Source: Fidelibacterota bacterium (GTDB lineage: Bacteria > Fidelibacterota > UBA2242). From it: a DNA stretch of 29,564 nucleotides. The DNA lies in the NCBI GenBank assembly GCA_049975265.1, contig JBNGDF010000029.1:1-29564 (forward strand), read 5' to 3'. Under the pieces are notes generated by a model. It made no database searches. It saw only the letters and a list, made by a program, of their open reading frames with translations, and was not told the origin of the DNA. Position numbers and translations under genes: made by a program. Positions 10,166-29,564 of the stretch are shown here, piece after piece; position 1 is the first letter of the stretch; every line of letters starts with the position of its first letter.

Positions 10166-10783
10166 ATGTTAATTGATCTTTTCAATCAAGGTGGGATTTT
10201 CATGTGGCCGATTTTGGTGCTGTTTGTTTTTGGTCTGATGATCTGCCTGGAAAGGGTGTATACCCTCTCGAAAGCATCTTTTACCACCAAACGGTTTATT
10301 CCAAAATTAAAACAGGCTTTGGAAGAGGATGGAGTCGCCGCTGCACTGAAGGTATGTGAAGAGACCCCCGGTCCGATTGCGGAAATCTTTCACGCCGGTT
10401 TATCCCGTGCCGACAAGGGTATTGAAGCGGTTGAGAAATCGATCGAAGCAGCCGGCTCCGTTGAAATGGCATTCCTTGAGAAGGGGATGATCTGGCTGGC
10501 GACGGTGATCACCGTCGCGCCGATGCTGGGTTTTACCGGAACGGTCTCCGGTATGGTCAGCGCCTTCCAGGACATTGCCGCTGCCAATAACATCTCTCCG
10601 GCGATTGTAGCCAGCGGTATTTCGGAAGCCCTGTTGACCACGCTGTTTGGACTGATTGTGGCTATGATCATTCAGGTCTTTTACAATCTGTTTACCGCCC
10701 GGGTGGACAGTATCGTTGTTGACATGGAAGAAAACTCTATCAATTTAATTGATACTTTGACGAGTATTCAAACCAAGAAATAA
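10166..10783 (+). CDS. exbB: MotA/TolQ/ExbB proton channel protein
   Basis: GGIFMWPI, LEKGMIWLATVITVAPMLGFTGTVSGM, GISEALLTTLFGLIVA; three TM helices. Confidence 0.93.
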   Translation: MLIDLFNQGGIFMWPILVLFVFGLMICLERVYTLSKASFTTKRFIPKLKQALEEDGVAAALKVCEETPGPIAEIFHAGLSRADKGIEAVEKSIEAAGSVEMAFLEKGMIWLATVITVAPMLGFTGTVSGMVSAFQDIAAANNISPAIVASGISEALLTTLFGLIVAMIIQVFYNLFTARVDSIVVDMEENSINLIDTLTSIQTKK

Positions 10784-10795
10784 GAGCTGCGGATT

Positions 10796-11191
10796 ATGAG
10801 CTTATTGAAGAATAAAGGTGTGCGTGAAGCCGAGATGCCATCGGGCTCACTGGCGGATATCGCCTTTTTGCTGCTGATCTTTTTCCTGCTGTCCACCACC
10901 ATTGATATGGATAAAGGAATTGGCATCGTTCTGCCGGCTGAGGGTGGTGAGATTGAAATGTCCAGCCAGAATATCACCAATATTTTAATAGACGCCAGGG
11001 GCTCTATTTTGATGGACGAGCGAGAGGTGGAACTGCATGAGATTAAAGGAATCGTGGAAAATCTCCAGATGCAGAATCCCAAAATGGTTTTCTCCGTGAA
11101 AGCGCACCCCCGCACGAAGTATAAAACCTATATCGAAGTACTGGATCAGCTGAAGCAGGCGAATACCCGCGTTATTTCCATTGCCGAATAG
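10796..11191 (+). CDS. exbD: Biopolymer transporter ExbD/TolR (copy 1)
   Basis: TM helix with conserved Asp 'SLADIAFLLLIFFL'; C-terminal 'YIEVLDQLKQA'. Confidence 0.9.
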   Translation: MSLLKNKGVREAEMPSGSLADIAFLLLIFFLLSTTIDMDKGIGIVLPAEGGEIEMSSQNITNILIDARGSILMDEREVELHEIKGIVENLQMQNPKMVFSVKAHPRTKYKTYIEVLDQLKQANTRVISIAE

Positions 11192-11201
11192 TGAGGGAGA
11201 G

Positions 11202-11606
11202 ATGGAGTTTAAGAAAAAAAGTAAAATGAAAATCGCCATTCCGACAACGGCGATGCCGGATATTGTCTTTATGCTGATTTTCTTTTTTATGGTCTCTTCG
11301 GTATTGAGGACCCATGAAGGCTTAGCCGTTGTGCTGCCCAAAGCCAAGCAGATTGAGAAGCTGGAATCCCGGGTCCATGTGACCTATATCTGGGTGTCTA
11401 AAGACGGCATGATTTCTATCGATGGTCGCCTGTACCAGCCTCAGAGTATTCGGAATGTGATGTATGAAAAGAGGACCGCTGATCCCCAGTTGATTGTATC
11501 CATCCGAGCCGATGAGCTGGTGAATATGGAGTTGATGAGTAAAATTCACAAGGAATTACGTCTCGCGGATGCTTTGGCGGTCAACTATTCCACCAGAGCA
11601 ATGTAA
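11202..11606 (+). CDS. exbD: Biopolymer transporter ExbD/TolR (copy 2)
   Basis: Start ATG 11202 after GAGGGAG; 'AMPDIVFMLIFFFMV'; 'SIRAD'. Confidence 0.9.
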   Translation: MEFKKKSKMKIAIPTTAMPDIVFMLIFFFMVSSVLRTHEGLAVVLPKAKQIEKLESRVHVTYIWVSKDGMISIDGRLYQPQSIRNVMYEKRTADPQLIVSIRADELVNMELMSKIHKELRLADALAVNYSTRAM

Positions 11607-11619
11607 GGACAGGAAAACG

Positions 11620-12285
11620 ATGATTATCAGACAAAATCCCGAGGTTAGTCTCAAATTGAAATACCCCTTAATATTGCGGATTAGTTTAGTCGTTACTCTG
11701 TTACTGATGATTATGATGTTCGCCTTGATCCCCAAATCCGGTGAGGGGGAACGCACGGCGAATGAGATTCGGATTGAGATCGAAACGGTTGACATTCCGG
11801 TGGTTGAGCAGCAGATGGAAGCCGCCAAACCGCCTTCCCGCCCCTCCATTCCCATCGAAGTCGAAAATGACGATCTACTGGATGATGTCACCATTGAGAT
11901 GAGCACCGATATCTCCGACTATCAGGCGTGGGAAGCGCCGCCGCCGCCGCCGGAGGAAGACGAGAGCGGTCCGCGGGTGCGCTTTATTCCCTATGATGAA
12001 CCGCCGGAGCCTTTGGGCGGATTTGCCGCGATTCAGCGCAACGTAAAATATCCCGAGATCGCTCAGGAAGCGGGTATCGAAGGTACGGTGGTGGTCCAGG
12101 CGTTTGTCAATGAATTCGGTCGGGTGACCGACTGTGTCGTTCTGAAAGGTGTGCCCAATACCGGTCTGGATGAAGCCGCTATCGAAGCAATTAAAAAGAC
12201 CAAATTCAAACCCGCCAAGCAGCGTGACCGCAACGTAGGCGTGTATATCTCAATACCGGTTATTTTTAAATTGCAGACGAATTAA
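11620..12285 (+). CDS. tonB: Energy transducer TonB
   Basis: Start ATG 11620 (AGGA upstream). Single TM, Pro-rich acidic linker (PPSRPSIP, APPPPPEE), TonB C-terminal domain 'YPEIAQEAGIEGTVVVQAFVNEFGRV...LDEAAIEA...FKPAKQ...PVIFKL'. Confidence 0.92.
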   Translation: MIIRQNPEVSLKLKYPLILRISLVVTLLLMIMMFALIPKSGEGERTANEIRIEIETVDIPVVEQQMEAAKPPSRPSIPIEVENDDLLDDVTIEMSTDISDYQAWEAPPPPPEEDESGPRVRFIPYDEPPEPLGGFAAIQRNVKYPEIAQEAGIEGTVVVQAFVNEFGRVTDCVVLKGVPNTGLDEAAIEAIKKTKFKPAKQRDRNVGVYISIPVIFKLQTN

Positions 12286-12314
12286 TTTTCGATTTTACCA
12301 ATATGATAACAGAT

Positions 12315-12342
12315 AAAATGCAGTGGTCAACCACTGCATTTT
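12315..12342. terminator. Bidirectional intrinsic terminator between tonB and the converging sprA operon
   Basis: Perfect inverted repeat AAAATGCAGTGG-TCAA-CCACTGCATTTT with A/T tails on both sides, between convergent stop codons at 12285 and 12399. Confidence 0.85.
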
Positions 12343-12398
12343 GCATTTCAAAGAGAAGCCGTCCGGATTATTTCCAGCATGGTGAATTGTCAGTGCTC

Positions 12399-13295
12399 TC
12401 AGGGTCGGTAGCTGATGGTCAGAATGTGAGGATTGTTCAGACCAGAGGGCATGAAAAGGTAGGCGTAATCGATGCAAAACCGCTCTCTCTTAATCCCGAA
12501 ACCGAGGGATTGGCGATTGATCGAACCGATATGGGAAAAGCCACCCCGCAATATCAACATATTCCGAAAATCCAGTTCGATTCCGGCGGATGCCAGAGAT
12601 TCACTGGAAATCAGGTGAGCGCCCAAATCCAGACCGATGCGGGCGTTCAAGTTTTCGCCCTCGAATAATTCAGGACGGACCATGCCAATGGTCAGCATGG
12701 CAGGCAACACGTTGGTATCTTTGTCGGCATGCAGCCTACCGACATTTTTCAGGGCAATCGACATATCCAGCATACTGGGAGCATCCCAGCGCACGGCGAA
12801 ATCGAAAGCCATTCCGTAGTCGCTGTAGGTATAGAGATGTTCGTGGAGATATTTACCGGTGGCGCCGATCAGGATATTGGTCACTGGTGACCAGCTGTAC
12901 GCCACGGCAGCGGCGATATACTGCGGTTCCACGGCGGCTAGTGGCTCCGCGCTGGGTGTCTCCCGGATTTCAACGCCCGGGATGCGGACGTAATTCAGCC
13001 CAAACCCAAGCGAAGATTTTTTTATGGGAATCGAAAAAGCCAGTGCGTCCATGCTGATATCGGCAAACCAGAAGTGATGAGACAGTGCAAATGTGACACT
13101 CTCCGCCATGATTCCCACCGGGTTTTCAAAAATCGCCAGCGGTGATCGGGCAGACGGAGAAAAGACACCCACTGATGCCGCCGAGGCGGCAGACGATGAT
13201 ATCCGCAGAAAGGACATACCGCTGTTGGTCAATTCCGCCTGAACGATTATCGTAGCGGACAGCAGGATTGATATAGTCAAGATTTTGTATTTCAT
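12399..13295 (-). CDS. PorV/PorQ-family (FadL-like/UPF0164) outer-membrane beta-barrel, divergent paralog
   Basis: Signal peptide; 'SFLRISSSAASAASVG' and 'IFENPVGI' correspond to the family motifs FLxIxxxARxxAMG and NPAGL; amphipathic strands; 'IDYAY...HILTISY' C-terminus. Confidence 0.75.
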   Translation of the reverse strand: MKYKILTISILLSATIIVQAELTNSGMSFLRISSSAASAASVGVFSPSARSPLAIFENPVGIMAESVTFALSHHFWFADISMDALAFSIPIKKSSLGFGLNYVRIPGVEIRETPSAEPLAAVEPQYIAAAVAYSWSPVTNILIGATGKYLHEHLYTYSDYGMAFDFAVRWDAPSMLDMSIALKNVGRLHADKDTNVLPAMLTIGMVRPELFEGENLNARIGLDLGAHLISSESLASAGIELDFRNMLILRGGFSHIGSINRQSLGFGIKRERFCIDYAYLFMPSGLNNPHILTISYRP

Positions 13296-13309
13296 GGTAG
13301 TTCCAAAGG

Positions 13310-14245
13310 TTAGAATTTGAATTCCCAGGAGAAGACATGCGTGCTGCCTTCCCCGACCAGTCCGATCAGGGCGCTGTAATCGATCTGGGTGCGGATGTTA
13401 TTTAGAAAACCGTACGCCAGTCCGAGCCCGAAGGTGGGATTCTCGTTATCGATTCCCATGCGCAGATATAAGATGTCACCAACGAGATACTCTCCCCCGA
13501 AATGTGCCCGGTAATCCTGTTTGTCGGAGATTTCAAAATCCCCGCTGAAACAGAAACCCTGGTCGTGGCGGTAGGCGAGACCGATTTTCAGAATCTGGGG
13601 AAACACTTCCGTATAGTTGCCGCCCTGTTCTCCAAAAAGGTCGTGGGTGTTCCAGGTGTAGCTGGCGCCCATATCCTTGAATAAAATGCCCAGCGTGACC
13701 CTTTCAAAGGGTTTCAGCAATATGCCAAGATCAAAGCCAAGCCCGCTGCCGGTCAGCCCAAGAAGCGAGTGATTGAGAATTTTAAAGTTCAAACCGACAG
13801 AGATACGGCGATGGAAGGCATTGGAAAAGGAGAGAAAGATGACATTTTCGCCGGTTTCATATGTCTCGTCGGGAAGCCCTGTCGAGGTGCGTCCCTGAAT
13901 GTCGGTAACGCCGGCATGCATCCAGGCTACGGATATTCCGGCGGAAGGCTTCAACGGCAGCGCTAGTCCGACGTAGTGGAGCTGACGGTCCAGGCTTAAA
14001 AAATAGTAGGTCAGCGAGAGGTGGCGGTCCTTTAGGTAGGACAGACCGGCGGGATTGTAATAAGCAGCGAATCCGTTTTCGCTGTCTGCGACGCCGGAAT
14101 TGCCCATTGCCAGCGACCGCGCTCCCAGTCCCATCCGTAAAAAGGCGCCGGCGTATCCGGCATTGTCACCGGTTTCCGCGCCAGTGAGGGTAAACAGGCA
14201 GATGGCGAAAGCGATGATTTTATATCGGTTTGACAGCAACTTCAT
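13310..14245 (-). CDS. PorV/PorQ-family outer-membrane beta-barrel
   Basis: 'AFLRMGLGARSLAMG', 'YYNPAGL', 'GFDLG', 'IDYS', C-terminal 'HVFSWEFKF' with terminal Phe; ATGA overlap with the upstream gene. Confidence 0.85.
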   Translation of the reverse strand: MKLLSNRYKIIAFAICLFTLTGAETGDNAGYAGAFLRMGLGARSLAMGNSGVADSENGFAAYYNPAGLSYLKDRHLSLTYYFLSLDRQLHYVGLALPLKPSAGISVAWMHAGVTDIQGRTSTGLPDETYETGENVIFLSFSNAFHRRISVGLNFKILNHSLLGLTGSGLGFDLGILLKPFERVTLGILFKDMGASYTWNTHDLFGEQGGNYTEVFPQILKIGLAYRHDQGFCFSGDFEISDKQDYRAHFGGEYLVGDILYLRMGIDNENPTFGLGLAYGFLNNIRTQIDYSALIGLVGEGSTHVFSWEFKF

Positions 14246-15828
14246 TTTACTACAATTAATTTAGTCCAGTACTCTTTTTCCGTATCGTTGATTTTTGTGG
14301 TTAATTTGCAAAAATAGGTGCCGTTGGCGACGATGTCACCGGCTTTGTTGCGTCCGTTCCAGCTCTCACTGTTATCGCCGGTGTGGACAATGTAGCGAGG
14401 CTCACCCTTGTAGACGCGGTTCATGGCAAAATCGAAGACCTCCAGTTTGACGGTGGCGGGGCTCTCAAGATGGTATTGAATCCGGACGTGCCCGTCCCCG
14501 TCGACATAATTATGAAAGCTCGGAGCAAAGGGATTCGGATAGGCATAGATGGGTGGTTGCCCCGGACGACTCGTGGAGAGAAACTGGCGATAGATGGTCC
14601 AGTTAATACCGTCATCGGTGGTTTTGGCGATTCCGTCGGACGAACCCAGCCATAGGTAGGGCAATCCCTGGCGCCGGTCAACGAGTGCGGCATACACGTC
14701 TTCGGAGTAGATATTTTCTCCCTTTTCGGCGTCGAAAGGCGGGGCGTAGAGCGCCCAGTTTTCACCGTCAATGGATTTGAAGAGCCCGCGTTCGGTACAG
14801 ACATAGATTGTCGGACCGTCAAAAGCAAAATTGTAGACCCGCTCACCGATCAGCGTCCGGCTCCAGGTTAATCCGCCGTTGCCGGTTTTATTGACCGCCT
14901 GAATCTGACCGCTCTCATCGGTGGTCAGTGCGCCGACCCAAATCGTCTCCTGCCCGTTGTAGTATTGGCGGGCGATGGCAATGATGAAATTACCGGAAAG
15001 GTTCGAATTCCGGGCATTGAATTTCTGCCAGCGGATGCAGTCGTCGGATTCGATGATTCCCAGATTCACACCATCGGCGGTGCCTACCCAGACAGTATCG
15101 CCGTAGGTAAGGACACTGAAACCTTTGTGATTGTGATTACCGTGTTGAGCGGGATCGCGGGGATCGATTTTAAAATCAATCTCATCACTGCAGAGGAGGT
15201 AGTCCAGATCATCGCTGGGCAGCGGCAGACGCTGCCAGGTTTTCCCAAAATCACAGCTGCGCCGGATCCCGCCCGCCCAACTGGTGATATAAACCCAGAC
15301 GGAATCGGGTGCGATTCGGCTGATGGCAATATCCCAGGTGGTATTGCTGACCGCCGTGGTGACAGGCAGATATTTAATCGTGTCGCCGTTCCAGACACCG
15401 GTGCTGTCGCCGCGCGTGTCCACCGGCTGATGCAGATAGGTCCAGCTCTGTCCATAATTTTTTGAATACGCCAGACCACCGCCGGTCTGCATGGAGCCTT
15501 CGACGGTGGTGGAGTCAAACACACCCGCGACGAAGATAATCGAATCAAGGACCGCAATGGCGGAAATGCCCCCTTTTGGTAAATTGCCGGCAGCGGAGTA
15601 ATAGGTGTAAAACGTCTCACCGAAATCGTCTGTTTTGCTCAGCCCGCCGCCGGTGGCATACCATATCAGCGAATCGCCCTGGGAAACGATCTGAGTGACA
15701 CCATTACCGCCAAGCCCCTCGTAAACCACCGAACTGTCGTTTAAAAAGGGTTTTGACAGCCGGAATGCCTGAGCAAAAAGAGTGCAGGACAGGAGGAGCA
15801 TAATGGTTATAAGACGTCGTTGGTTCAT
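14242..15828 (-). CDS. Secreted Asp-box (BNR) beta-propeller protein with C-terminal FlgD-Ig/T9SS type-A-like sorting domain
   Basis: Six Asp-box-like motifs (KTDDFGETF, SKNYGQSW, SCDFGKTW, TGNGGLTW, SIDGENW, TTDDGINW). CTD 'YAYPNPF...VKLEVFD..MNRV...WNGRNKAGDIVANGTYFCKL...TKLIVVK'. Confidence 0.85.
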   Translation of the reverse strand: MNQRRLITIMLLLSCTLFAQAFRLSKPFLNDSSVVYEGLGGNGVTQIVSQGDSLIWYATGGGLSKTDDFGETFYTYYSAAGNLPKGGISAIAVLDSIIFVAGVFDSTTVEGSMQTGGGLAYSKNYGQSWTYLHQPVDTRGDSTGVWNGDTIKYLPVTTAVSNTTWDIAISRIAPDSVWVYITSWAGGIRRSCDFGKTWQRLPLPSDDLDYLLCSDEIDFKIDPRDPAQHGNHNHKGFSVLTYGDTVWVGTADGVNLGIIESDDCIRWQKFNARNSNLSGNFIIAIARQYYNGQETIWVGALTTDESGQIQAVNKTGNGGLTWSRTLIGERVYNFAFDGPTIYVCTERGLFKSIDGENWALYAPPFDAEKGENIYSEDVYAALVDRRQGLPYLWLGSSDGIAKTTDDGINWTIYRQFLSTSRPGQPPIYAYPNPFAPSFHNYVDGDGHVRIQYHLESPATVKLEVFDFAMNRVYKGEPRYIVHTGDNSESWNGRNKAGDIVANGTYFCKLTTKINDTEKEYWTKLIVVK

Positions 15829-16895
15829 GGCGATATACTGAAATTGTTGTCGCTGATGTCGGAGCGATTCGGGTTGGTGGGATCAAAGATTTTAATTCTG
15901 CATTCCGTAGAGCGTCTGGCTGGGACGGTCCAGTCGTAGGCGCCAAGCGCCGCCGCGGTGGTCGTAATGGTTGTGTATTCCGGTGTCGCCGCATTGGCGT
16001 TGACGGTATACTGAATCGTGACCTGATTGATGTAGGCGCTCTCCCACTCAATCGTATAGGTTTGATTATATGTAAGTGTAACGGCATAATCGGGTGCCGT
16101 AAGATGGACTCCGGGATTGATCAGGGTTCTTTTCAGGGTGTCGCTGACCGCGCCGTGAATGTCCTCGGCATAGAAGTAAAAGACGAAGTCTCCCTGCAGA
16201 GTACTGTTGGCCTTTGTCGGAATGGTAATGGTGAAAATGCCGTCGCCGGCGATTTCGTCGCCCCATCCGCCGGACGCCGGCCCCTCATCGGACAGAAAGA
16301 AGCTTGGATCGGTTTTATAGGTGCCATCGGGTTGTAACGCGTGGAAAAGAACCGAGCCAATGTCCTGATAACCCTGGGGATCGGTGACGCGGATTTTGAA
16401 TATAACAAATTCACCTTTCTCGAAAGATCGCGGAATCTCCAGCGGGTAAAGCACCGGCGGGCTGTTGGGAGATACCAGCGCCTCCTGTTCCTCGATAGAA
16501 CTGCTGTTGCCGTCTTCGTCAAAAGCCTGAACGCTGACCCGGTAATATCCGTCATTATTTGCCAGCCGGGTGGAATCAATCAGGCAGGAGAAAACGCCGT
16601 CATACCTGATGATATCCAGCGGTGGTCCGGTATCATAGAGATAGCCGCTGCGAAACAGCTCTTCAGCAGTGGAATAAACGGAATCCCGCCGGTAAAGATA
16701 GTATACCACCGAGTCCACGGTTTCAATTCCCTGGGGATCAAACACTTCGACAGCCATAAACAGCGACTTATTCAACTGGGAATAGTTCAGAGAAACCGAT
16801 TCAATTACCGGATCGGTGTACAGCTCCTCCTGGGTCGTTTTGACACAGGCAACCGTAGTGAGAAGGATTCCGATTAATACAAGGACATGTTTCAT
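15825..16895 (-). CDS. Lipoprotein with two choice-of-anchor-X-like Ig domains and a C-terminal Ser/Thr-rich Ig-like domain
   Basis: Start ATG 16895 overlaps the prmA stop (ATGA). MKHVLVLIGILLTTVA-C. Internal repeat 'VEVFDPQG...LYDTG..DIIRYDGVFS' / 'IRVTDPQG...LSDEG...GDEIAGDGIFT'. Ends 'SDISDNNFSISP'. Confidence 0.75.
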   Translation of the reverse strand: MKHVLVLIGILLTTVACVKTTQEELYTDPVIESVSLNYSQLNKSLFMAVEVFDPQGIETVDSVVYYLYRRDSVYSTAEELFRSGYLYDTGPPLDIIRYDGVFSCLIDSTRLANNDGYYRVSVQAFDEDGNSSSIEEQEALVSPNSPPVLYPLEIPRSFEKGEFVIFKIRVTDPQGYQDIGSVLFHALQPDGTYKTDPSFFLSDEGPASGGWGDEIAGDGIFTITIPTKANSTLQGDFVFYFYAEDIHGAVSDTLKRTLINPGVHLTAPDYAVTLTYNQTYTIEWESAYINQVTIQYTVNANAATPEYTTITTTAAALGAYDWTVPARRSTECRIKIFDPTNPNRSDISDNNFSISP

Positions 16896-17740
16896 TTTTT
16901 CTCTGTCAGCAGTGCCACCCATTCATCCCGAAACAGCTCTTCTTTAATTATCAGGTCGTAATTTAGCACAGCAGACGTAAACATGTTATATTCATCTTTC
17001 AAAATACCGCTAAAAATGCAGGGTGGAATTTTACCATGTTTTACGATATTTTTCAACAACGCCAGGTTGGGCTTTTTTTCAATATTACTGAGAATTAAAT
17101 CGAATTGATACTTGTCATGTTTGGTTATATCACCAATCGTGAGAGTGAAACGGTCATGAATTCCGTTAAGTTCCAGCTGCCGGTGAAAATTCTCCACAAT
17201 GTCGGGATCGATGTCCCAGGCTTCCACGAAGCCGGCACCCAGTTTCAGCGCCGCAATGCTCAGTATTCCGCTGCCACAGCCGGCGTCCAGAACGGTTATG
17301 CCGGGGCGGATGGCTTTTTCCAGCAGCATTAATGCCATTTGCGTGGTGGCGTGCGTCCCGGTACCGAATGCCATACCGGGCTGAATGGCGATCCGGACGG
17401 CTTCGTTGCCCGTGTAGGTTTCCCAGGCGGGGAAGATGACGATTTTGGGACTGATGTGGATGGGCTTGAAGTACGCCTGCCAGTTGAGATGCCAGTCTTC
17501 GTTTTGCAGGAAATGGCGGGTGTATGAAATGGTTTCACCAGGGAAAAAATTTACCAGCCGGCGAATCCGGGCGCTGATCTGCTTCCGGTCACGGACATGA
17601 AAAAATGCTTCGATGGAATCATCTTTTTCCAGTATTCCGAGACAGGGCGGTTCGGACAGCAGCGCAATGAGAATCCCGGGATCGTAATCGCCCCGGGGAA
17701 ATTGGTAATACAGCCACTGTTTGGATTTACGGGTTGTCAT
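16892..17740 (-). CDS. prmA: Ribosomal protein L11 methyltransferase
   Basis: DWHLNWQAYFKPI, IQPGMAFGTGTHATT, SAM motif VLDAGCGSGILSI, DID, SNI, SGIL. Confidence 0.93.
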   Translation of the reverse strand: MTTRKSKQWLYYQFPRGDYDPGILIALLSEPPCLGILEKDDSIEAFFHVRDRKQISARIRRLVNFFPGETISYTRHFLQNEDWHLNWQAYFKPIHISPKIVIFPAWETYTGNEAVRIAIQPGMAFGTGTHATTQMALMLLEKAIRPGITVLDAGCGSGILSIAALKLGAGFVEAWDIDPDIVENFHRQLELNGIHDRFTLTIGDITKHDKYQFDLILSNIEKKPNLALLKNIVKHGKIPPCIFSGILKDEYNMFTSAVLNYDLIIKEELFRDEWVALLTEKK

Positions 17741-18657
17741 TTGGCGCTCTTTCCGGATGTGAAGATATAATCATAAAGAACCTGTCCGACGATCTGCAGG
17801 CTCCGGGGGCTGCATTTATCCGGGGTGTCCATGGTGGTGTGCCAGAAGTTTTGATAGCGGTTGGGATAGTCAAAATCAATCAGGTCTATAGACGGTATGC
17901 CGGCGTGTTCGATCAGCATGACATGATCATCGTGGATGTAGCTGCCGAATTTGTGCTGGAATTCGGAATAGCCCCTCTCCCGGGCGATTTCCCAGAGGGT
18001 TTTGACCAGCTGGGGATGGCTCCGGTAGGAATGGCGCTCGATGGGGATAGTCAGTTCTCTGTCGCCGATCAGATCAATGATTATCGCCTCATCGGGTTTG
18101 ACGATGGGCAGGTTTTTGGCGAAATATTCTGAACCCATGCAGTAGTAGTCTAGCGACCCGGAATAGCCGTAATCTTCACCGTCAAAGAGAACCAGATAAA
18201 CCGCCCGGTTAGGCGGGTTTTGATGAAGCAGTTCTGCCAGATGCATCAGTACCGCCACACCGCTGGCGCCGTCGTTGGCACCGAGGATCGGACGGGAGCG
18301 TTTGCGGGGGTCCGGGTCGTGATCGGCGCGGGGGCGGGTGTCCCAGTGAGCTCCGATCAGCAGCGGATTTTCACCATTGACACTAAATCCGGCAATGATA
18401 TTTGTCAATTCGAAAGTAATGCTATCTTCCGGAATTGGCTGGTCGAAACGTTGCAGAATCAGAGTATCCGCCAGATTTTTGAAGAAATTGTGGAAATATT
18501 GAAGTGCTTTGGCATGTCCCTCAGAACCGGGGTTGCGGAAGCCGATGGAGCACTGTTTTTCGAGGTAGACGAAAGCCTGCTCGCCGTCAAACACTTCGTT
18601 CTGACTGGTGCATGCGCCGAACATAATCAGCAACGCGGTGAGAATGATCCTTTTCAT
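17737..18657 (-). CDS. M28-family Zn lipoprotein, likely glutaminyl-peptide cyclotransferase (animal-type/Bacteroidetes QC)
   Basis: Real start ATG 18657 (RBS GAGGA), not 18915. Lipobox LIMFGA-C. 'FDGEQAF..LEKQC..GFRNPGSEGH', 'AHWDTRPRAD.DPD', 'GANDGASGV', 'FDGEDYG', 'GSEYF', 'DLIGD', 'DDH', 'FWHT..DT'. Confidence 0.85.
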   Translation of the reverse strand: MKRIILTALLIMFGACTSQNEVFDGEQAFVYLEKQCSIGFRNPGSEGHAKALQYFHNFFKNLADTLILQRFDQPIPEDSITFELTNIIAGFSVNGENPLLIGAHWDTRPRADHDPDPRKRSRPILGANDGASGVAVLMHLAELLHQNPPNRAVYLVLFDGEDYGYSGSLDYYCMGSEYFAKNLPIVKPDEAIIIDLIGDRELTIPIERHSYRSHPQLVKTLWEIARERGYSEFQHKFGSYIHDDHVMLIEHAGIPSIDLIDFDYPNRYQNFWHTTMDTPDKCSPRSLQIVGQVLYDYIFTSGKSAK

Positions 18658-18658
18658 A

Positions 18659-21600
18659 TTATCCTCTGATTGCAATGTTGACGTCAAAGCCGCCGTTGCG
18701 GGTGATACGCTTACCGGTGCGGGCATTCTTGCTCTCGCTGTAGGAGAAGAAGATCCCGCCGGTGACTTTCTGTGTGAAGGAGTAGCTGATGCGTGGTTCA
18801 ATTTTCCAGGTGGTGTTGCTGTTGGTCGGCTTAAAATCGCTGACGGCGTCATTACGCTGTTCGGTTTTGGAGGAGCTGTAGTCGAATGCCATGGTGAAGT
18901 TAATATTGTTTTCAAGACGCTTGTTTTTCAGAAAGGGAAGCGGGATAGTAAAGCCGCCCTTTTTCTGATAATTCATGGAGGCGTTGATGCTCTGGTCGGT
19001 GACCAACGATGCGCCGCCGTTCGGTTGATTGGTGATGGATTTGCCTCCGGACACGCGCAGGCTGGAGCTGATGTTGTTTTTGAATTGCATGGAGAGTCCC
19101 ACGAGGGGTTGGAAATAGAGTTTATAGCTGGAGTTTTGAATCTCTCCGTTGCGATAGACGACGGATTCCTTTCCGGTAAAGCCGTGGTCCAGGGAAAGTT
19201 TGGTAAAAACTTTGGACAGAAATTTGATCTTTTCCAGCTGGGAAATACTCAGGGTCCAGCCGGGAAAGGGGATACCCTCTTTCCCCGAATTGTCAAATGT
19301 AATATAGTCCCGGGTGAGATTGCGGTTGAAATTTCCCTGGGACTTAGACCAGGACATGTTCTGGCTGTAGGAGAGGGAGGTATTGATATTGTTGGTAATT
19401 TTGATCCCGCTGCGCAGGCTGGCGTCCGAGTTTATTGAAATGCTGTTTGGATAGACACCGGCTTCGGTGGCGATGGTATCCAGTCCCGGGTCCGACGCCA
19501 GACCCATCCGGTAGAGCAGACCGGGTTCGCCGACGCGCCCCTTGTTGTTGTTGCTGCGGCTGGTGGAGTAGCTGAACTGGATCGGCTGGACCCGGTTGAA
19601 TGCGCTGTAGAGATATTCCAGCAGCGGGATTTCCTTTGGTGCTTTATTCATATCTTCTTTTATTTCGTCCTTTCTCTCCGGTTCGGTTGTCTGATGTCTT
19701 CCCCGCCCGGTTGTGCGACCGGTACCGGCGGGTCTGGTGGCAGACTTACGCGCCGATTTGGGCGTGTAGAAGGTCTTCATAATGGCACTGGGATCGAGAC
19801 TGAAAGAGGTGGAAATCCGGTTTTGATTACTGAGATTGTCAACACTGCGGGTGCCGCTGGTAACCGGTTCGCCCCAGGTGTAGGCGGCACTGTAGGATAT
19901 GCTGGGGGTGAGCCAGCTGAAGATTTTCGGATTGAAGTTCGCCGAGTAACTTTCGTTTACGTTCACCTGCCTGCCGGGATTCAGTTCGCGGATCGCTTTG
20001 AGTTTATCGTCCCGAAAATCGGTCAGGCTGTTTTTGGCTTTCCAGGAATAGTTCAGGTTGAGATTATCAAATACTTTGTAGCCGGCTGTAATGGAGCGGT
20101 TGAGACCTAAATCGTAGGGCTCGGTGATTTTGCCTTTGCGGGGGATTTTGGTAGATTTGCTTTCGGCGGCATCGACGGAAAAGTCGAGGTTGCTGGGCGT
20201 ATAGTACCAGCGCAGGTCGCCGAGCCGGCTGCCGAGAACCGGGATGTTCTGTGCCCATTTAAAGGGTTGCAAAAAGTTATTGCGTCCGAAGGGAACCTTA
20301 TACGAAATGCTGCCCCGGTAATTTTCGGACTCATTTCTGCGGTCGGTGACCGAAGAGCTGTTGGACCACTGGGCGCTGACGGAGACCCGCAACTGATCGA
20401 TGGTGTATTTGGTCAACCAGAAATCTGATGATCGTTTGCTGTAGGAGACGTTGACTCCGTAGGATTCCGACAGGTTCAGAACGCTGTCCGGTGGTGCATC
20501 GCCTGCCAGAATGTCGGAATTGGGTAAAAACTTTGGGGCACTGAAGCGATTGGTATAGGAACCGGATACCGGCAGGCTCAGACCCCAGTTCGCCGGTGTC
20601 AGTTTGTCCAGATTGATGTTGCCCCGGACCGACAGGTTGCGGGTGTTGTTTAGCCCCGTGGTCTGCAGGTTGGGACGCTGCTCGACGGTGTGGAAATCGG
20701 CGTCCCGCTGGTCGATATTGACATTGACCCGGCCCAGATCGGCGACGGTTAACGCAACCGAGCCGCGGTAGGCGATACCGGGATCGCGGCGCACGTCGGA
20801 AAGACGCAGTTCGTCCAGCCAGACCTCGCCAAATACCGTATTGTCGTAGCGCGGCAGCGGCGACGAACGATCAACATCCTCCAGCGTATATTTCTGGTTG
20901 ATGACTCCCATATCAATTCGTTTTACCTTCGAAATGGTGGGGCTCCCAACGATGATAATCTCCTTGCCGGTGAAGCGACCGTCTTTGATCTCTCTCCAGT
21001 GGCGCTTTAAAACCCCGCCTTCGCCGTCATGGGTGATGGTAAACGGCTGCAAGCCGCTGTCGTTGGGATAGTGCTCGCTGAAATCCTCTTCGGTGGCAAA
21101 ACCCTTCAGACTGGTGAGAAAATCAAAATCGATTTCCATATTGTTCTTTTTATCCCAGCCGGGGTAGACGGGCTGGCGGTACTCATAGTAGTTGTAAATC
21201 TTATTTTCATCGTTGATGATGCCGAATTTAATGAAGAACTGGAGCGGTGTCTTTTCACCCTCATCGAAAAATTTGGTGCGGGTGCGCAGTTCGTGTCCGG
21301 CAACGAAAAGTTTCATTTTCTTATAGGTAATGAAGCTGGCGTCTTCGAAGAGGACTTTCTTCGCTGCGGCGGCTTCGCCGGGTCGCAGCCCGCGGTTGTT
21401 GTTGAAGGACATGACCAGCGATTGTTCCTTGAGCTGAATCTCGTTGACGGCGTCGTATTCGCCCCGGACGCCTTCCGGCGGGTCATAGGTGACCGGGTTG
21501 TCTTCCGTGTTCAAAACGCTGATACTGAAGGCTTCGTCGTTTTTTACATAGTTTCCGTCTGTTCCGTCACCGATGCCGAGCTCTTCCCATTCATTACCCA

Positions 21601-24600
21601 CCAGTTCGATTTTGGCGATCATGACGGTGTCCTCGGAGGTAACGCCGTCAATCCAGACCCGGCAGGCTTCGATGGTCTGCCAGCTGACGTCGCCGTTGGG
21701 CTTGGCTTTTTGAAATTCGTTCAGCGGAATGCGGTAGAGCTTCCAGCCCGTTGGGCTGCCGTTATCAAACTCCGTGCGCCCGGCAACGTAATTTTCGTCG
21801 ATGCGGTCATCCAGCAGAAAATCGATAGTGTAATAATCATTCACCAAATTGACTTCGAAATCCCGATTAAGGTCCTCTGAATCGGGGACATATCCCGTGG
21901 CGTCACCCTCGCTGCTGTTTTCGGTGCCGTTGATGTGGCGGTAATCGCGGGAACCTTCCGACCATTTCCAGTTGTCGCTATGGGGATCGGTTTTGCTGCG
22001 ATTGTAAAAGGTAAGACTATCACTACCATATCGAATAGTATCACCGAGACAATTAACGATGAATTCATCTTCATCAAAGACACCGTCAATACCTGTATCT
22101 TCGCCGTCATCCAGCAGATCGTTGCCCAGGGTGAAGCCGGCTTCCGGCTGATCTTCGGTGTCCAGCTCTCCGTTTTGAATGTAGTCTTCGCTGATATAGC
22201 CCAGGTCGATATGCATTCTCCCCGCCGTTCCGCGGACCCAGACCTCCAGAAATTTGGTTTTGGACTGGTCATAGTAACTGGTAGGGAAGGCGTAGGTGAT
22301 ACCGCCCCAGGCTTCTTCGGGCTGTGAGAAGCCATCAACCACTTCGATCGACCAGTATGGATCGAGTACCATGACCATGATTTCCGTTAGATTGTTCTGT
22401 GCCTGAGTACTGACCTGTTTATTGGGCCAGATTTTTTTGGTGGCGACACCGCCGTAGGGATTGTACCAGAAAAAGAAACCGCGCTGTGAATCCCGTTTTG
22501 AGAGAGGCGCAGCGGCGTGTGACCAGTAGCGATAAATAATCGGCGGCGAGGTGATCCGTTTCGATCCCTCAAAATCGTCAATGAAACCGACACCGTTCGG
22601 GTCGCCGGTCTCTTCATTGCTCAGGGTGTTGGGATTGGGACGTACCTGGGCGATTTCGCCTTCAATCGTTATAGATGAGGGCTTGTCTGTTTCAATAAGT
22701 GGCAGCCAGTTGACCGCCCGGGTCAGGAAATTCAGATTCTGGTTCAGGCGACCGTTGAGGTCCCAGACGAAGTTGCGCATCGGTTCGTAGCCGACATCCA
22801 CCTTTTCGTCCACGACCGACTGGCTGAAATAGAGCGCCGTCCCGCCGATAAACGAATTGTCGCCGAAATCATACTGTGCCCGGGCACCCAGAATGGTTTT
22901 CTTGTCCAGTTGAAAAAACTGGTTGCGCTCGTATTTGATATCGAGTTCGGCATTGGGCTTCGTGGCTTCGGGATTGATCAGGGTTAAGGTACCGGTAAAG
23001 TAATCAATCGTATAATCCACTCCGCGGGTCAGGGTTTGACCGCTTAGCATAACGGACTCACTACCCTCGATCACCATGGCACCGAGATTGATGACGGAGC
23101 TGCGGTTCTCGTATTTACAGATGATTTTAAATTTGGAGTCCTGGGTAATATCCGTAATGTTGGTACGGTTGCTTTCGTACATTGCCGAGCAGTTATAGTC
23201 GGAGTTTAAATTTTCATTGCCGACACCCGAGCCGGTAGAATCGTACTGAAAAGGTCGCAGAAAGGGGAGCCAGAGTTCGCCGGACTGAAGGCTGAGAACG
23301 TTCGGATTCCCGGTATCCACGATGCCGTCGGGAGTGAGATCACCGGATTCCGCTTTGAGGTCCAGCCCGAATTTCTGAATAAAGGGTACGCCATCCACCG
23401 GGTCCCGCTCGACATCGCCGGTTTTTCCGTATATGTAGACGATATCCAGTTCGAATCCCTCGCTATTGATGCCGGTGGTTCCCAGATAGTAGACGTTTTT
23501 GAATTCCAGGTCCCAGCAGGGATGGCTGGGTCGGTTCTGGCGGGGTTTGATCATTTTTAACTGAATATCGCTGGAATCCTTCTTATCCCAGTCGCCGTAT
23601 TCTTCGATCGGGTTTTTTCCGGGATCGAGAACGCGATAGACGACGGCAATGATTTCCGATTCCTGTGCCGGGGTTCGCAGCCGGATGAATCCCAAGTCCA
23701 GATTGGCGCTGTAATCTTCGTCTACCACCAGACGCTGAAAAACACGCTTTTCGGTATAGGAGGTATCCTGGTCCGGGAAATTGGGGTCGACAAAGGCTTT
23801 GCCGGAAATGCTGCCGGCAATTTCACCGGTAATGGATTTATACACCTCCAGATCGACGACGGTTCTGCCGCTCAGTTTGAAGACGCCGCCGGACTCAAGG
23901 AATCCGTCATAGAAGGAATCACGGAATTTATCATCCAGAAAAAAATACTGCCGTTTGACATATTCGTAGTCTTTGATCGCCAGGGAGGTTTTCTGGGCAC
24001 CGCCGTCGACACTCAGTTTCTCTTTTTTGCCTTTTTCCACACTGGCAATCGTCGTAATGTCGATAGCGCCCAGCTTCATCAACGCCTTAAATCCAAACAG
24101 ACCGTTGTTTGTACCGGAGAAGGTGACGAACTGGGTTCCCGGCAGCGACAGCGAGATATTCCCGGCTTCGACTTTCTGGACAATGTCGTCCTCTTCACCG
24201 GTATAGATAATCTTCAGATTGTTTTCGAAATCAAAATCCCTCTCGCTGTCCTGGTCGACGAGGATGCTGATCCGGTCGCCGATTTTGCCCTCGATGTTCA
24301 GCTGCTGTTTCTGATCCACGATAAAGGTGGTGGAGCTCCCGGCATTATAACCGGTGCGCACCTGAGACTGCTTTTGGTTCTGGAGACGACCGTTGATATT
24401 GACATTACCCGAGACCCGCAGGGCAACTCTCTGACCGGCGATGTCGGCGCCGATCAGCTCCAGTTTTTCGGAACGAACGGCGCTTTTGGGTTCGACAAAG
24501 GATTTCCGGCAGATTTCATGCAGCTCATTGCGCAGCAGGTGCGCTGATTTCTGCTGAAAATAGGAATCCAGCGAGATACCACGTGGTGCTCGTGTTGGCA

Positions 24601-24913
24601 AACCTTTGTATTCTTCAATAAAAATGAGATGCTGACCCGTATCATCCAGGCGGGTTTCGGTTTTTAATTGGCGCGGATCATATACGTTCAGGATAAACCG
24701 GTTGGTCTGGTGCGCGTAGGGTGAGAGCAGCGACAGACCGCGGGGCGTTTCCATCTTCAGGGAGGCGAACCGGTTTGACAACCAGTCGACCCTGAGCGGA
24801 AAGAGAGCCGCCTCTCCGTCACCGGCGGAATCCTGCCCAGCCGCCGGCACCAGCAGTAAAGCCGCAAGCATTACCCAAAATATATAGATTCCTTTGCGAT
24901 TCAGTGTCGTCAC
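18659..24913 (-). CDS. sprA: Cell surface protein SprA / type IX secretion system translocon (Sov)
   Basis: 2084 aa with signal peptide. Family-like motifs: 'QLNIEGKIGDRI', 'DFDFENNLKIIYTGEEDDIVQKVEAGNISL', 'LFGFKA', 'WDLEFKNVYYLG', 'LTRGVDYTIDYFTGTLT', 'FIDDFEGS', 'WKLYRIPL', 'GEVWLDELRL'. Long C-terminal amphipathic beta-strand region. GTG start is uncertain. Confidence 0.92.
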   Translation of the reverse strand: MTTLNRKGIYIFWVMLAALLLVPAAGQDSAGDGEAALFPLRVDWLSNRFASLKMETPRGLSLLSPYAHQTNRFILNVYDPRQLKTETRLDDTGQHLIFIEEYKGLPTRAPRGISLDSYFQQKSAHLLRNELHEICRKSFVEPKSAVRSEKLELIGADIAGQRVALRVSGNVNINGRLQNQKQSQVRTGYNAGSSTTFIVDQKQQLNIEGKIGDRISILVDQDSERDFDFENNLKIIYTGEEDDIVQKVEAGNISLSLPGTQFVTFSGTNNGLFGFKALMKLGAIDITTIASVEKGKKEKLSVDGGAQKTSLAIKDYEYVKRQYFFLDDKFRDSFYDGFLESGGVFKLSGRTVVDLEVYKSITGEIAGSISGKAFVDPNFPDQDTSYTEKRVFQRLVVDEDYSANLDLGFIRLRTPAQESEIIAVVYRVLDPGKNPIEEYGDWDKKDSSDIQLKMIKPRQNRPSHPCWDLEFKNVYYLGTTGINSEGFELDIVYIYGKTGDVERDPVDGVPFIQKFGLDLKAESGDLTPDGIVDTGNPNVLSLQSGELWLPFLRPFQYDSTGSGVGNENLNSDYNCSAMYESNRTNITDITQDSKFKIICKYENRSSVINLGAMVIEGSESVMLSGQTLTRGVDYTIDYFTGTLTLINPEATKPNAELDIKYERNQFFQLDKKTILGARAQYDFGDNSFIGGTALYFSQSVVDEKVDVGYEPMRNFVWDLNGRLNQNLNFLTRAVNWLPLIETDKPSSITIEGEIAQVRPNPNTLSNEETGDPNGVGFIDDFEGSKRITSPPIIYRYWSHAAAPLSKRDSQRGFFFWYNPYGGVATKKIWPNKQVSTQAQNNLTEIMVMVLDPYWSIEVVDGFSQPEEAWGGITYAFPTSYYDQSKTKFLEVWVRGTAGRMHIDLGYISEDYIQNGELDTEDQPEAGFTLGNDLLDDGEDTGIDGVFDEDEFIVNCLGDTIRYGSDSLTFYNRSKTDPHSDNWKWSEGSRDYRHINGTENSSEGDATGYVPDSEDLNRDFEVNLVNDYYTIDFLLDDRIDENYVAGRTEFDNGSPTGWKLYRIPLNEFQKAKPNGDVSWQTIEACRVWIDGVTSEDTVMIAKIELVGNEWEELGIGDGTDGNYVKNDEAFSISVLNTEDNPVTYDPPEGVRGEYDAVNEIQLKEQSLVMSFNNNRGLRPGEAAAAKKVLFEDASFITYKKMKLFVAGHELRTRTKFFDEGEKTPLQFFIKFGIINDENKIYNYYEYRQPVYPGWDKKNNMEIDFDFLTSLKGFATEEDFSEHYPNDSGLQPFTITHDGEGGVLKRHWREIKDGRFTGKEIIIVGSPTISKVKRIDMGVINQKYTLEDVDRSSPLPRYDNTVFGEVWLDELRLSDVRRDPGIAYRGSVALTVADLGRVNVNIDQRDADFHTVEQRPNLQTTGLNNTRNLSVRGNINLDKLTPANWGLSLPVSGSYTNRFSAPKFLPNSDILAGDAPPDSVLNLSESYGVNVSYSKRSSDFWLTKYTIDQLRVSVSAQWSNSSSVTDRRNESENYRGSISYKVPFGRNNFLQPFKWAQNIPVLGSRLGDLRWYYTPSNLDFSVDAAESKSTKIPRKGKITEPYDLGLNRSITAGYKVFDNLNLNYSWKAKNSLTDFRDDKLKAIRELNPGRQVNVNESYSANFNPKIFSWLTPSISYSAAYTWGEPVTSGTRSVDNLSNQNRISTSFSLDPSAIMKTFYTPKSARKSATRPAGTGRTTGRGRHQTTEPERKDEIKEDMNKAPKEIPLLEYLYSAFNRVQPIQFSYSTSRSNNNKGRVGEPGLLYRMGLASDPGLDTIATEAGVYPNSISINSDASLRSGIKITNNINTSLSYSQNMSWSKSQGNFNRNLTRDYITFDNSGKEGIPFPGWTLSISQLEKIKFLSKVFTKLSLDHGFTGKESVVYRNGEIQNSSYKLYFQPLVGLSMQFKNNISSSLRVSGGKSITNQPNGGASLVTDQSINASMNYQKKGGFTIPLPFLKNKRLENNINFTMAFDYSSSKTEQRNDAVSDFKPTNSNTTWKIEPRISYSFTQKVTGGIFFSYSESKNARTGKRITRNGGFDVNIAIRG

Positions 24914-24977: not shown

Positions 24978-25589
24978 TCAGTTTAGATTCGTTAGCGATG
25001 GAAATTCTTTTCTAAGGGACTGGTAGAGGCGGGTGAATGCCTGTCCGCGATGACTGATGGCGTTTTTTTCCCTGGGGCTCAGCTCTGCCAGTGTTTTGCG
25101 GTAGGCGGGAACATAAAAGATCGGGTCGTAGCCGAACCCGTTCTGACCGCGTTGTTCCGTCAGAATCTGCCCCTCAATAGTGCCTTCGGCACGGAGGACG
25201 ATCTCCGGATGATAAAAGACGGCAACGGTCCGGAAACGGGCGCTGCGGCGCTCCTCCGGCACGTTCTGAATTTCCTGAATCAGTTTCTGCACATTGTCGG
25301 CATAGCTGGCGTTTTCTCCGGCATAACGGGCGGAATAGACGCCGGGCTGACCGTTTAAACCGTCCACTTCGAGACCGGTGTCATCGGCAATGGTCGGCAA
25401 TCCTGAAAATTCGTTGAGCATAGATGCCTTTTTTAATGCATTTTCGGAAAGGGTGTTCCCGTCTTCGATGACTTCCGGTGCGTCGGGGAAATCCGCCAGC
25501 GTCAGGAGCTCGACGCCGGGCAGCCGAAAAATGGCTCTGATTTCCTTTATTTTATCCGGATTGTTCGACGATATTAATATCTTTGTCAT
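24978..25589 (-). CDS. rdgB: dITP/XTP pyrophosphatase (RdgB/HAM1)
   Basis: SSNNPDKIKE, ENALKKA, ADDTGLEVDGLNGQPGVYSARYAG, GFGYDPIF, KNAISHRGQA. Confidence 0.96.
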   Translation of the reverse strand: MTKILISSNNPDKIKEIRAIFRLPGVELLTLADFPDAPEVIEDGNTLSENALKKASMLNEFSGLPTIADDTGLEVDGLNGQPGVYSARYAGENASYADNVQKLIQEIQNVPEERRSARFRTVAVFYHPEIVLRAEGTIEGQILTEQRGQNGFGYDPIFYVPAYRKTLAELSPREKNAISHRGQAFTRLYQSLRKEFPSLTNLN

Positions 25590-29396: not shown

Positions 29397-29564
29397 GGGG
29401 CGAATATAAAAACAATATTCGTTGTTATCTATAAAAAGCTGGAGCAATGCCGGATGGTTTCACGAAAAAGGAGCTGTGACTTTTTTTTACATTATTACAT
29501 AATTTTATTTCACTGCTGTCCCGTTAAGAAAAATGAAAAGGGCGTTATATAATTGATAATCAAC

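Follow-up and report, generated by a model that had tools for sequence, protein, structure and literature searches.

A type IX translocon operon facing the only Ton motor operon of a Marinisomatota genome

The window analysed here is a 29,564-nt stretch of DNA (contig JBNGDF010000029.1, assembly GCA_049975265.1) from a genome assigned to the phylum Marinisomatota/Neomarinimicrobiota. On its plus strand, exbB (10166-10783; PF01618, 107.6 bits) is followed by two copies of exbD (10796-11191 and 11181-11606; PF02472, 81.6 and 60.7 bits, respectively) and by tonB (11620-12285; PF03544, 72.1 bits), the likely start of which, at 11620, was set by alignment. ExbB, ExbD and TonB all scored above their Pfam cut-offs, and the 221-aa TonB has one membrane helix, a proline-rich linker and a C-terminal domain. 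A perfect 12-bp hairpin (12315-12342), likely a bidirectional intrinsic terminator, lies between the converging stops of tonB and the last gene of a minus-strand unit. It was the best terminator-like match on the minus strand (29 sites found compared with 18.6 ± 4.7 in shuffled sequences) and folds at -17.8 and -16.9 kcal/mol on its two strands. The original prediction had both units ending at one terminator; the position of the hairpin agrees with this, but it was not among the sites returned by the plus-strand terminator scan, and its common use by both units is plausible from the sequence.

The minus-strand unit starts with rdgB (24978-25589; PF01725, 214.5 bits), encoding a non-canonical purine NTP pyrophosphatase, and continues with sprA/sov (18659-24913; TIGR04189, 853.6 bits against a cut-off of 200; PF14349), encoding the T9SS (type IX secretion system) outer-membrane translocon of 2084 aa. 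The genes that follow encode a glutaminyl-cyclase-like lipoprotein of the M28 family (17737-18660; PF04389), the housekeeping ribosomal protein L11 methyltransferase PrmA (16892-17740; PF06325, 193.3 bits), an unnamed Ig-like lipoprotein of 357 aa (15825-16898), which has no Pfam family and was placed by operon synteny, and a 528-aa beta-propeller protein with a CTD (14242-15828). Two divergent PorV/PorQ-family barrels complete the unit: barrel b (311 aa; 13310-14245) and barrel a (298 aa; 12399-13295), with 94.5 and 103.1 bits on NF033709 (cut-off 90). From sprA to the last barrel, neighbouring genes overlap or are at most 14 nt apart. The gene identities confirmed the single minus-strand unit that had been predicted, with sprA, two barrels and a CTD gene, and added rdgB, the M28 lipoprotein, prmA and the Ig-like lipoprotein, which the prediction had not included. 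The predicted lack of TonB-dependent receptor, gld, porU and porT genes in the window was also borne out by the ORFs scanned (20 with Pfam and 15 with NCBIfam).

The 528-aa protein consists of a single beta-propeller and the CTD, and its alignment-based model reached a pLDDT of 84 (39 for the single-sequence fold). PorZ (5m11) was the second-ranked Foldseek match (E 8.6e-12, TM 0.41, 15% identity), behind a two-component sensor propeller, and the CTD was recognised by a local HMM (E 5.7e-12). On NF052228 the protein scored just 30.4 bits, in its CTD region. From its predicted structure, this protein is likely PorZ-like and likely belongs to an attachment module instead of being ordinary cargo; it would likely pair with one of the window barrels for attachment, in the manner of PorZ-PorQ and in cooperation with PorU. 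Barrel a scored 57.3 bits for PorQ and 42 for PorV, both under the cut-offs, and did not group with canonical PorV, while barrel b scored 71.1 bits for PorV2, 56.5 for PorQ and 34.1 for PorV, also all under the cut-offs. For the M28 lipoprotein, PDB matches included the glutamine cyclotransferases 6qro and 6qql (E 5e-44 and 3e-42), and the two highest matches were named exopeptidase/aminopeptidase. The Ig-like lipoprotein belongs to unnamed Atlas clusters, in which Fidelibacterota/Ignavibacteriota are the commonest, and is kept in the sprA operon across the class.

The T9SS of this genome is not minimal, as had been proposed, because many of its parts are encoded outside the window. PorU is found elsewhere (NF033707, 696 bits against a cut-off of 420), and the best PorV gene is at C6:29015-30301 (PF19572, 92 bits, above the cut-off; NF033710, 143 + 39 bits, cut-off 250), compared with only 31 and 23 bits on NF033710 for the window barrels. 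There were 90 TIGR04183 matches to type-A CTDs, 86 of them above the cut-off, and these 86 are outside the window. An SprE-like gene (NF052312, 137.4 bits, E 6.6e-40, cut-off 250) encodes a protein with a lipobox and the conserved N-terminal motif, which from its sequence is likely orthologous to SprE/PorW, and a PorD-like gene outside the window scored under the NCBIfam cut-off. The genome carries 19 PorV-family paralogues, and as most of them directly follow (3') a gene that has a CTD subtype of its own, they are likely to be private carriers or anchors of CTD proteins. DUF6089, which we take to be the PorG equivalent, was found in 0/5 genomes; PorP/SprF (TIGR03519) was above the cut-off in none of five genomes, with weak matches in two, and an NCBIfam scan at 1e-5 found no SprT/PorT among 111 envelope proteins of G086, a 970-kb genome of the phylum. 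In G086, orthologs of the propeller protein and of PorU are both missing and only two PorV-family genes remain, which fits the loss of an attachment module as a block.

The Ton motor had been described as receptor-less. However, 24 TonB-dependent receptor barrels are encoded elsewhere in the genome. The window exbB is the sole ExbB-type gene among three MotA/TolQ/ExbB family members, the other two being MotA-like (carrying MotA_N or accompanied by MotB/FliG), and the window TonB is the only plain TonB, as the other two TonB_C proteins are BlaR1/M56 fusions. Receptors were present in 201/201 genomes of the phylum, so the Ton set needs no further job. In 6 of these 201 genomes TonB was not detected, which is likely an assembly gap because all six carry receptors. 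As both Ton and SprA are near-universal in the phylum, their co-occurrence is uninformative. In gene order, 10 of the 24 receptors are located in units of receptor, unnamed CTD protein and PorV (permutation mean 0.6, maximum 5 in 5000), one of which is retained in G086. Therefore, the T9SS likely supplies surface partners to Ton-energised receptors, and these units are likely the firmest functional tie between Ton and the T9SS, an indirect one.

The linkage between Ton and sprA is not conserved. Of the 23 informative relatives from the class, 6 have the adjacency, all within one clade (support 1.0), and it has already been lost in a genome of the same genus (G014), while in eight streamlined genomes tonB is about 130-143 kb from sprA. 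The sprA operon itself is intact to the last barrel in 27/34 relatives (six are cut by contig ends and one lacks it), rdgB is upstream of sprA in relatives, and the M28 lipoprotein gene still adjoins sprA in G086. As the adjacency is limited to one clade, it is probably a local rearrangement, judging from these gene orders. In addition, the converging transcription and the terminator argue against co-expression of Ton and sprA, and the arrangement behind the original prediction is, in itself, ordinary.

In its strongest form, that prediction would make the window a self-contained minimal T9SS, whose dedicated Ton set grips the N-terminus of SprA or a PorV paralogue. We consider this very improbable, and it has been largely refuted by the 24 receptors, by PorU being located elsewhere and by the one-clade adjacency. 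It would account for the adjacency and shared hairpin in 7/24 informative genomes, including this one, and for the lack of detected Gld genes, but the supposedly dedicated motor is the only Ton set of the cell, and the window lacks the best PorV gene as well as those for SprE and PorD. A TonB-box matrix, built from box-like motifs found by pattern in 7/24 receptors and therefore weak, gave no match when the 200 N-terminal residues of SprA and the barrels were scanned, and the barrels have no N-terminal extension ahead of the family motif. The top SprA score (12.3 bits at residue 1315; 99th percentile 11.2 per 200 residues) was rejected as a TonB box, being about chance level over 2084 residues and inside the PF14349 match, a region which we take to be the extracellular cap. 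Moreover, SkpA encloses the N-terminus of SprA in Flavobacterium johnsoniae (PMC10994853).

The absence of the usual motor, in contrast, stands on sequence grounds and extends further than originally thought. With profiles run without a Gld-positive control genome, GldL and GldM were found neither in this genome nor in any of the 201 genomes of the phylum, GldN was found in 0/201, and GldK gave only partial matches (best 72.6 bits against a cut-off of 350; 0/201 at 1e-60); no gldKLMN operon was therefore detected in this genome or the 200 others. SprA was nevertheless found by profile search in 200/201 genomes, some as small as 0.8-1.1 Mb. Plasmid records were also searched: across the 388 kb of a Parabacteroides distasonis record carrying sprA, nothing matched GldL, and no gldK was present in the best 60 of 509 records when searching with an FGE-domain protein. 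In outline, a motor-less T9SS is probably not new, as sprA and CTD proteins without gldKLMN have reportedly been noted in Rhodothermus and Ignavibacteria (McBride and Zhu in 2013, Kulkarni in 2017 and McBride in 2019). Full-text literature searches gave no report of a T9SS lacking Gld proteins in Marinisomatota.

One explanation is that SprA is driven by an unrecognised or highly diverged motor and track, either GldLM/KN homologues below detection or, in this class, a flagellum-less MotAB-FliF'-FliG cluster. The missing positive control for the Gld profiles would allow this, as would the many G086 envelope proteins, among the 111 scanned, with no family at 1e-5, and GldLM has little sequence in common with the other 5:2 motors (PMC9389320). 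This genome also carries motA-motB-fliF(C-term)-fliG without flhA. However, profiles trained on Bacteroidota detected counterparts of SprA, PorU, PorV, SprE and PorD here, and a topology screen for adjacent GldL-like/GldM-like pairs gave two candidates in G086 and four in this genome, none of them shared or plausible. As a general energiser, the MotAB-FliFG cluster was discounted, since MotA paralogues are missing from three of five single-contig genomes (G086, G047 and G155), where the window-type ExbB is the only MotA/TolQ/ExbB protein. A diverged motor is unlikely in our view.

Another possibility is that the T9SS is Ton-energised through SprE, rather than SprA or PorV, with ExbBD-TonB ejecting the PorV-cargo complex in FCB lineages that lack GldKLMN. 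The coupling point would be the C-terminal end of SprE/PorW, and the adjacency in the window would be incidental. TonB_C was found at the C-terminus of SprE/PorW-like lipoproteins in 18 of the 150 top representatives (profile from 21 unfused sequences), and in 16 of the same 150 when the HMM was trained solely on the TonB family of the window plus the two M56 fusions. The fusions are spread across 10 clades in a quick tree and come mostly from other lineages, including Balneolaceae, Eisenbacteria and Hatepunaea. TonB_C ends were present in 16/90 motif-bearing SprE-like proteins compared with 0/35 without the motif, and in 21/61 complete metagenome ORFs, a ranking biased towards fusions; of 27 C-termini chosen for a Pfam check, 26 had the domain, with 25 reaching the cut-off. 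No paper on SprE::TonB_C was found in full-text literature searches, and the fusion is new in this analysis.

PorW's C-terminal domain binds PorN in Porphyromonas gingivalis and was proposed as a powertrain (PMC8754138), and the TonB_C of SprE-like proteins is placed where PorW binds the PorKN ring, making it a candidate coupling point. In Marinisomatota, TonB would dock directly to the C-terminus of SprE, while in other lineages the pairing partner of the fused TonB_C would be TonB or a TonB-box-like strand. A related motor working outside receptors is known from Myxococcus, where gliding is driven by AglRQS, related to MotAB/ExbBD (PMC9389320). The original idea of a Ton-energised system gains nothing from the adjacency, and its support comes separately from elimination in the closed genomes and from the fusions in other lineages. 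Several observations speak against coupling through SprE: no fusion occurred among 43 close relatives of this genome, and no exbB, exbD or sprA was found near 80 SprE loci (flank up to 7 kb). TonB_C is a mobile domain here, as the M56 fusions illustrate, and on an outer-membrane lipoprotein with no inner-membrane anchor it could not pull alone. Another SprE clade ends in a peptidoglycan-binding SPOR domain (P0203, P0218), so the tail may be a mere tether, and TonB was undetected in the six genomes with likely assembly gaps. In F. johnsoniae, the SprE tail is also dispensable (PMC10994853). Co-folding of SprE (residues 21-605) and TonB's C-terminal domain (residues 116-221) scored 0.00 in two runs without control pairs, which speaks neither for nor against. 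Taken together, we regard coupling through SprE as possible but less likely than not.

Our preferred explanation, with a probability of roughly 0.55, is that the window contains two separately transcribed units, a general Ton motor and a pore-and-carrier operon, with no TonB pull on SprA. They likely became neighbours through one rearrangement in an ancestor shared by a small clade. ExbBD-TonB would open the 24 receptors, while SprA would export CTD proteins onto PorV-family barrels, with the other T9SS parts scattered in the genome and the Gld/Por motor or ring undetected. The least certain step is that the carrier-cargo complex would leave SprA without a pull from the window TonB. Against this explanation, release from SprA requires energy and SprE in F. 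johnsoniae (PMC10994853), and G086 keeps SprE-, PorD- and Skp-like genes at 970 kb, which suggests that an energy input still exists. The lone ExbB in three of five single-contig genomes and the recurrent TonB_C on SprE-like proteins also point away from this explanation, and it is further weakened by Gld searches run without a positive control and by a TonB-box matrix drawn from 7/24 receptors.

To our knowledge, all mechanistic work on the T9SS assumes a GldLM motor and a GldKN track. The near-universal SprA with no detected Gld chain, even in the smallest genomes, speaks for a translocon that predates this chain or can be separated from it, and such a phylum raises the question of what ejects cargo from SprA. 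The T9SS has been derived from the gliding machinery in a recent model (PMC12635249). A rather speculative view, less likely true than false, is that outside Bacteroidota the FCB set of SprA, SprE, Skp, PorD and PorV is a core gliding-independent machine older than GldKLMN and powered by Ton through SprE, to the C-terminus of which TonB_C has become fused repeatedly, with GldLM/KN later replacing Ton at this point in Bacteroidota. As the SprE::TonB_C fusions pinpoint a specific coupling point, the energy source of non-Bacteroidota T9SSs becomes directly testable. Fidelibacter multiformis has been cultured from the phylum studied here (PMC11652737).

The Ton set resembles the stand-alone exbB-exbD-exbD-tonB operons present in Bacteroidota such as Bacteroides, having one motor operon, two ExbDs, no adjacent receptor and many receptors elsewhere; only the neighbourhood differs, and nothing else that matters. 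As in the P. gingivalis attachment complex (PorU-PorV, PorZ-PorQ), a gene for a propeller with a CTD directly precedes PorV/PorQ-family barrels and PorU is present. However, PorZ presumably has two propellers, compared with one in the 528-aa protein, known here from sequence and predicted structure, and the window barrels are under both the PorQ and PorV cut-offs (PorQ about 57 bits against 220). Type-A CTD cargo and PorU are shared with the Bacteroidota T9SS, whereas here the GldLM motor, GldKN ring, PorG and PorP/SprF carriers were undetected, the PorV family is expanded, SprE and PorD are under their NCBIfam cut-offs and sprA is in an operon with PorV-family genes. The order of a cargo gene and then its own barrel gene recalls the pairs of type B CTDs and PorP-SprF carriers (PMC12635249), except that here the private barrels belong to the PorV family and the CTDs to type-A-like subtypes. 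AglRQS of Myxococcus (PMC9389320) is a precedent for a MotAB/ExbBD-like motor driving a non-receptor envelope machine, but it is dedicated and has its own partners, whereas the sole candidate here is a shared Ton set with a hypothetical partner. The system is also similar to the Extended Translocon of F. johnsoniae (SprA, PorV, SprE, SkpA and PorD; PMC10994853), with SprA above its cut-off, PorV-, SprE- and PorD-like genes in this genome and a Skp-like gene in G086.

The sprA, PorV-family, CTD-protein and Ton genes named in the original prediction were all found in the window, which is contig C29 of a genome of 2.86 Mb (completeness 95.3%, contamination 1.2%). The minus-strand unit runs in the order rdgB, sprA, M28 lipoprotein, prmA, unnamed lipoprotein, 528-aa CTD protein, PorV-family b and PorV-family a, with an intergenic spacing of -7 to +14 nt downstream of sprA, and a perfect 12-bp hairpin lies between it and the converging exbB-exbD-exbD-tonB operon. 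The M28 lipoprotein (17737-18660, minus strand) matched bacterial glutaminyl cyclases in the PDB. Its gene overlaps the sprA stop, and the two stay neighbours from this class down to one genome of 970 kb; the product may be a T9SS-linked maturation enzyme. Another unnamed lipoprotein (248-871) and an unnamed 313-aa protein (28506-29447), both on the minus strand, have no Pfam family.

SprA was matched in 200 of the 201 phylum genomes, in all 87 genera (87/87). The SprA fragments on G056 contig C105 and G188 contig C158 scored far above the rest of the phylum; these are probably misbinned Bacteroidota contigs. GldL_N, GldM and GldN at E 0.001, and GldK at 1e-60, were found in none of the 201 genomes, a result to be read as "not found" and not as proven absence, because no control genome gave a match to the Gld profiles. 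As internal controls, Bacteroidota-trained SprA, PorU, PorV, SprE and PorD profiles detected their counterparts, and a topology screen gave no GldL/GldM-like pair. The streamlined relative G086, a single contig of 969,550 bases with about 1,020 ORFs, retains rdgB-sprA-M28, two PorV-family genes, the Ton operon, SprE-, PorD-, Skp- and BamG-like genes and at least three cargo proteins; no Gld family was matched among 111 envelope candidates scanned, nearly all out of its 239 N-anchored proteins. The sole MotA/TolQ/ExbB gene is the ExbB orthologue in G086 and in two other genomes (G047, G155), and three such genes are present in each of G055 and G118. A Gld-less T9SS across the phylum is likely to be real. 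Three McBride-lab papers reportedly mention Gld-less sprA genomes.

On contig C7 of the source genome (74769-83745; L153:4770-13746), a lipoprotein, two TPR proteins and a 447-aa protein are followed by motA, motB, the C-terminal part of FliF, fliG and another TPR protein, and a lone second motA is located at L154:2079-2927. flhA was not found in this genome and is present in four relatives. The cluster is possibly a flagellum-less rotor.

The secretion system had been predicted to be minimal, which did not hold at the level of the genome, as PorU (696 bits), a second C25 protein, the best PorV, SprE-like and PorD-like (DUF4835) proteins and 86 CTD matches that exceed the cut-off (of 90 in all) are encoded outside the window. 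The SprE/PorW-like TPR lipoprotein scored 137 bits, below the cut-off. There are 19 PorV-family genes, the best of which (contig C6, near bamD) groups with the bamD-linked PorV of G086; the two window barrels are divergent PorV-family paralogues. The 528-aa protein was modelled as a single propeller plus CTD (pLDDT 84), with a sensor propeller ranked first and PorZ second by structure. Since it is missing jointly with PorU from G086, it is likely to be an attachment component. Its propeller-CTD orthologue is longer (~790 aa) in G014, a congener without Ton adjacency (L057:3339-5714), and at L053:19108-21483. Elsewhere, on contig C23 (L164:357-7173), a Lamin-tail/OB-fold CTD protein, a PorV-family barrel, an 863-aa helix-hairpin-helix barrel and a FadL-like barrel form a cluster resembling a DNA-handling surface module.

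The sprA operon was present through to the last barrel in 27 of 34 class relatives; six of the other seven were cut by contig ends and one (G033) had no operon within 4.8 kb. The M28 gene was missing in G008. After excluding four operon-bearing relatives with <2.5 kb of downstream sequence, the Ton operon adjoined the sprA operon in 6/23 and not in 17/23, so the proposed linkage is not conserved. The six linked relatives and the source genome form one clade (support 1.0) in a tree of six operon proteins from 28 genomes, seven without coverage being left out, and G014, inside this clade, has lost the adjacency. Outside the class, among the best 150 matches per table, tonB and sprA are separated by ~130-143 kb in eight streamlined genomes and by 50-250 kb in six further ones. 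The likely explanation of the pattern is one rearrangement, and the adjacency is very probably incidental.

Although the Ton set was described as receptor-less, the genome encodes 24 TonB-dependent receptor barrels. Of its three MotA/TolQ/ExbB family members one is of the ExbB type, and of its three TonB_C proteins one is a plain TonB. Ten receptors are followed within four ORFs by a PorV-family gene on the same strand (mean 0.6 and maximum 5 over 5000 permutations). In nine of these units, an unnamed protein of 580-1220 aa, whose CTD tail is distinct, stands between the receptor and a private PorV-family barrel (L159:3075-11468, L160:7731-13185, L161, L162, L163, L165, L166, L167 and L168), and one such unit is retained in G086 (L107:4365-11835). 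The barrels of these modules group together in one clade (support 0.81), and no Pfam family was found for the middle proteins, either in eight scanned from the source genome or in the G086 one. One receptor and one middle protein have an ORF broken in two (L161:1771-4405, L162:5172-8148), reflecting a frameshift or assembly error.

Ton could alternatively energise export through SprE. TonB_C was found on 4/72 homologues of the source SprE-like protein. The lipobox and N-terminal motif are preserved in these four, whose scores on the PorW/SprE model are 76-152 bits and whose C-termini carry one to three TonB_C domains. When two homologue sets were pooled (125 proteins), seven of the 90 motif-bearing proteins had a clear TonB_C and a nine-member clade a divergent one (96.8% to the window TonB family by HHalign, against 0.04-0.12% for three control groups), with none in the 35 without the motif. 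When 1.84 billion representatives were searched with a profile built from 21 unfused sequences, 18 of the best 150 matches carried TonB_C; these fall into 10 clades, and 8 parsimony changes were counted on a quick tree of the 133 motif-bearing matches (without shuffle control). In metagenomes, 21 of 61 complete ORFs were fused among the best 80 of 479 SprE loci, ranked against a fused query. Pfam verified TonB_C in 26/27 selected C-termini, 25 at or above the cut-off. Fused lipoproteins occur in several FCB lineages (P0052, P0062, P0065, P0071, P0214, P0216 and the P0206 clade; loci L176 and L179-L245), the few with source names coming from Balneolaceae, Ca. Eisenbacteria and Ca. Hatepunaea; no description of this fusion was found in the literature searched. 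However, none of 43 close relatives of the source SprE is fused, and exbB, exbD and sprA are all missing from the flanks of 80 SprE loci. Furthermore, SPOR replaces TonB_C on P0203 and P0218, SprE-like proteins of another clade, suggesting that the tail of SprE serves as a periplasmic docking site that can be exchanged. A TonB_C domain anchored in the outer membrane could act as a tether to the wall, as a receptor-box dock while receptor-cargo-PorV units assemble, or as a partner of TonB.

The PorW C-terminal end of P. gingivalis binds PorN and is a proposed energy carrier (PMC8754138), but F. johnsoniae can do without the equivalent tail; in that species substrate loading is energy-free and release requires the motor and SprE (PMC10994853). 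Therefore, here, either release differs, or Ton or something unrecognised supplies the energy. Within the best explanation, the absence of pull from the window TonB has a probability of roughly 0.55. Energisation by Ton through SprE seems rather unlikely, and export powered by an unrecognised motor more doubtful still; the three estimates overlap slightly.

SprA is described as FCB-specific, occurring in FCB phyla except Chlorobiota, and Marinisomatota is not named in nine supplements of that study (PMC12611786). One model has the T9SS arising inside the gliding machinery (PMC12635249). Term searches of PMC5445135 and PMC12618676 gave nothing relevant, and passages of 10.1101/031039, PMC11205867 and PMC5317091 contained nothing further on energisation. 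Judged by its genes, the Marinisomatota system would behave as a T9SS translocon and attachment module, but the motor and ring that mark the T9SS of Bacteroidota were not found.
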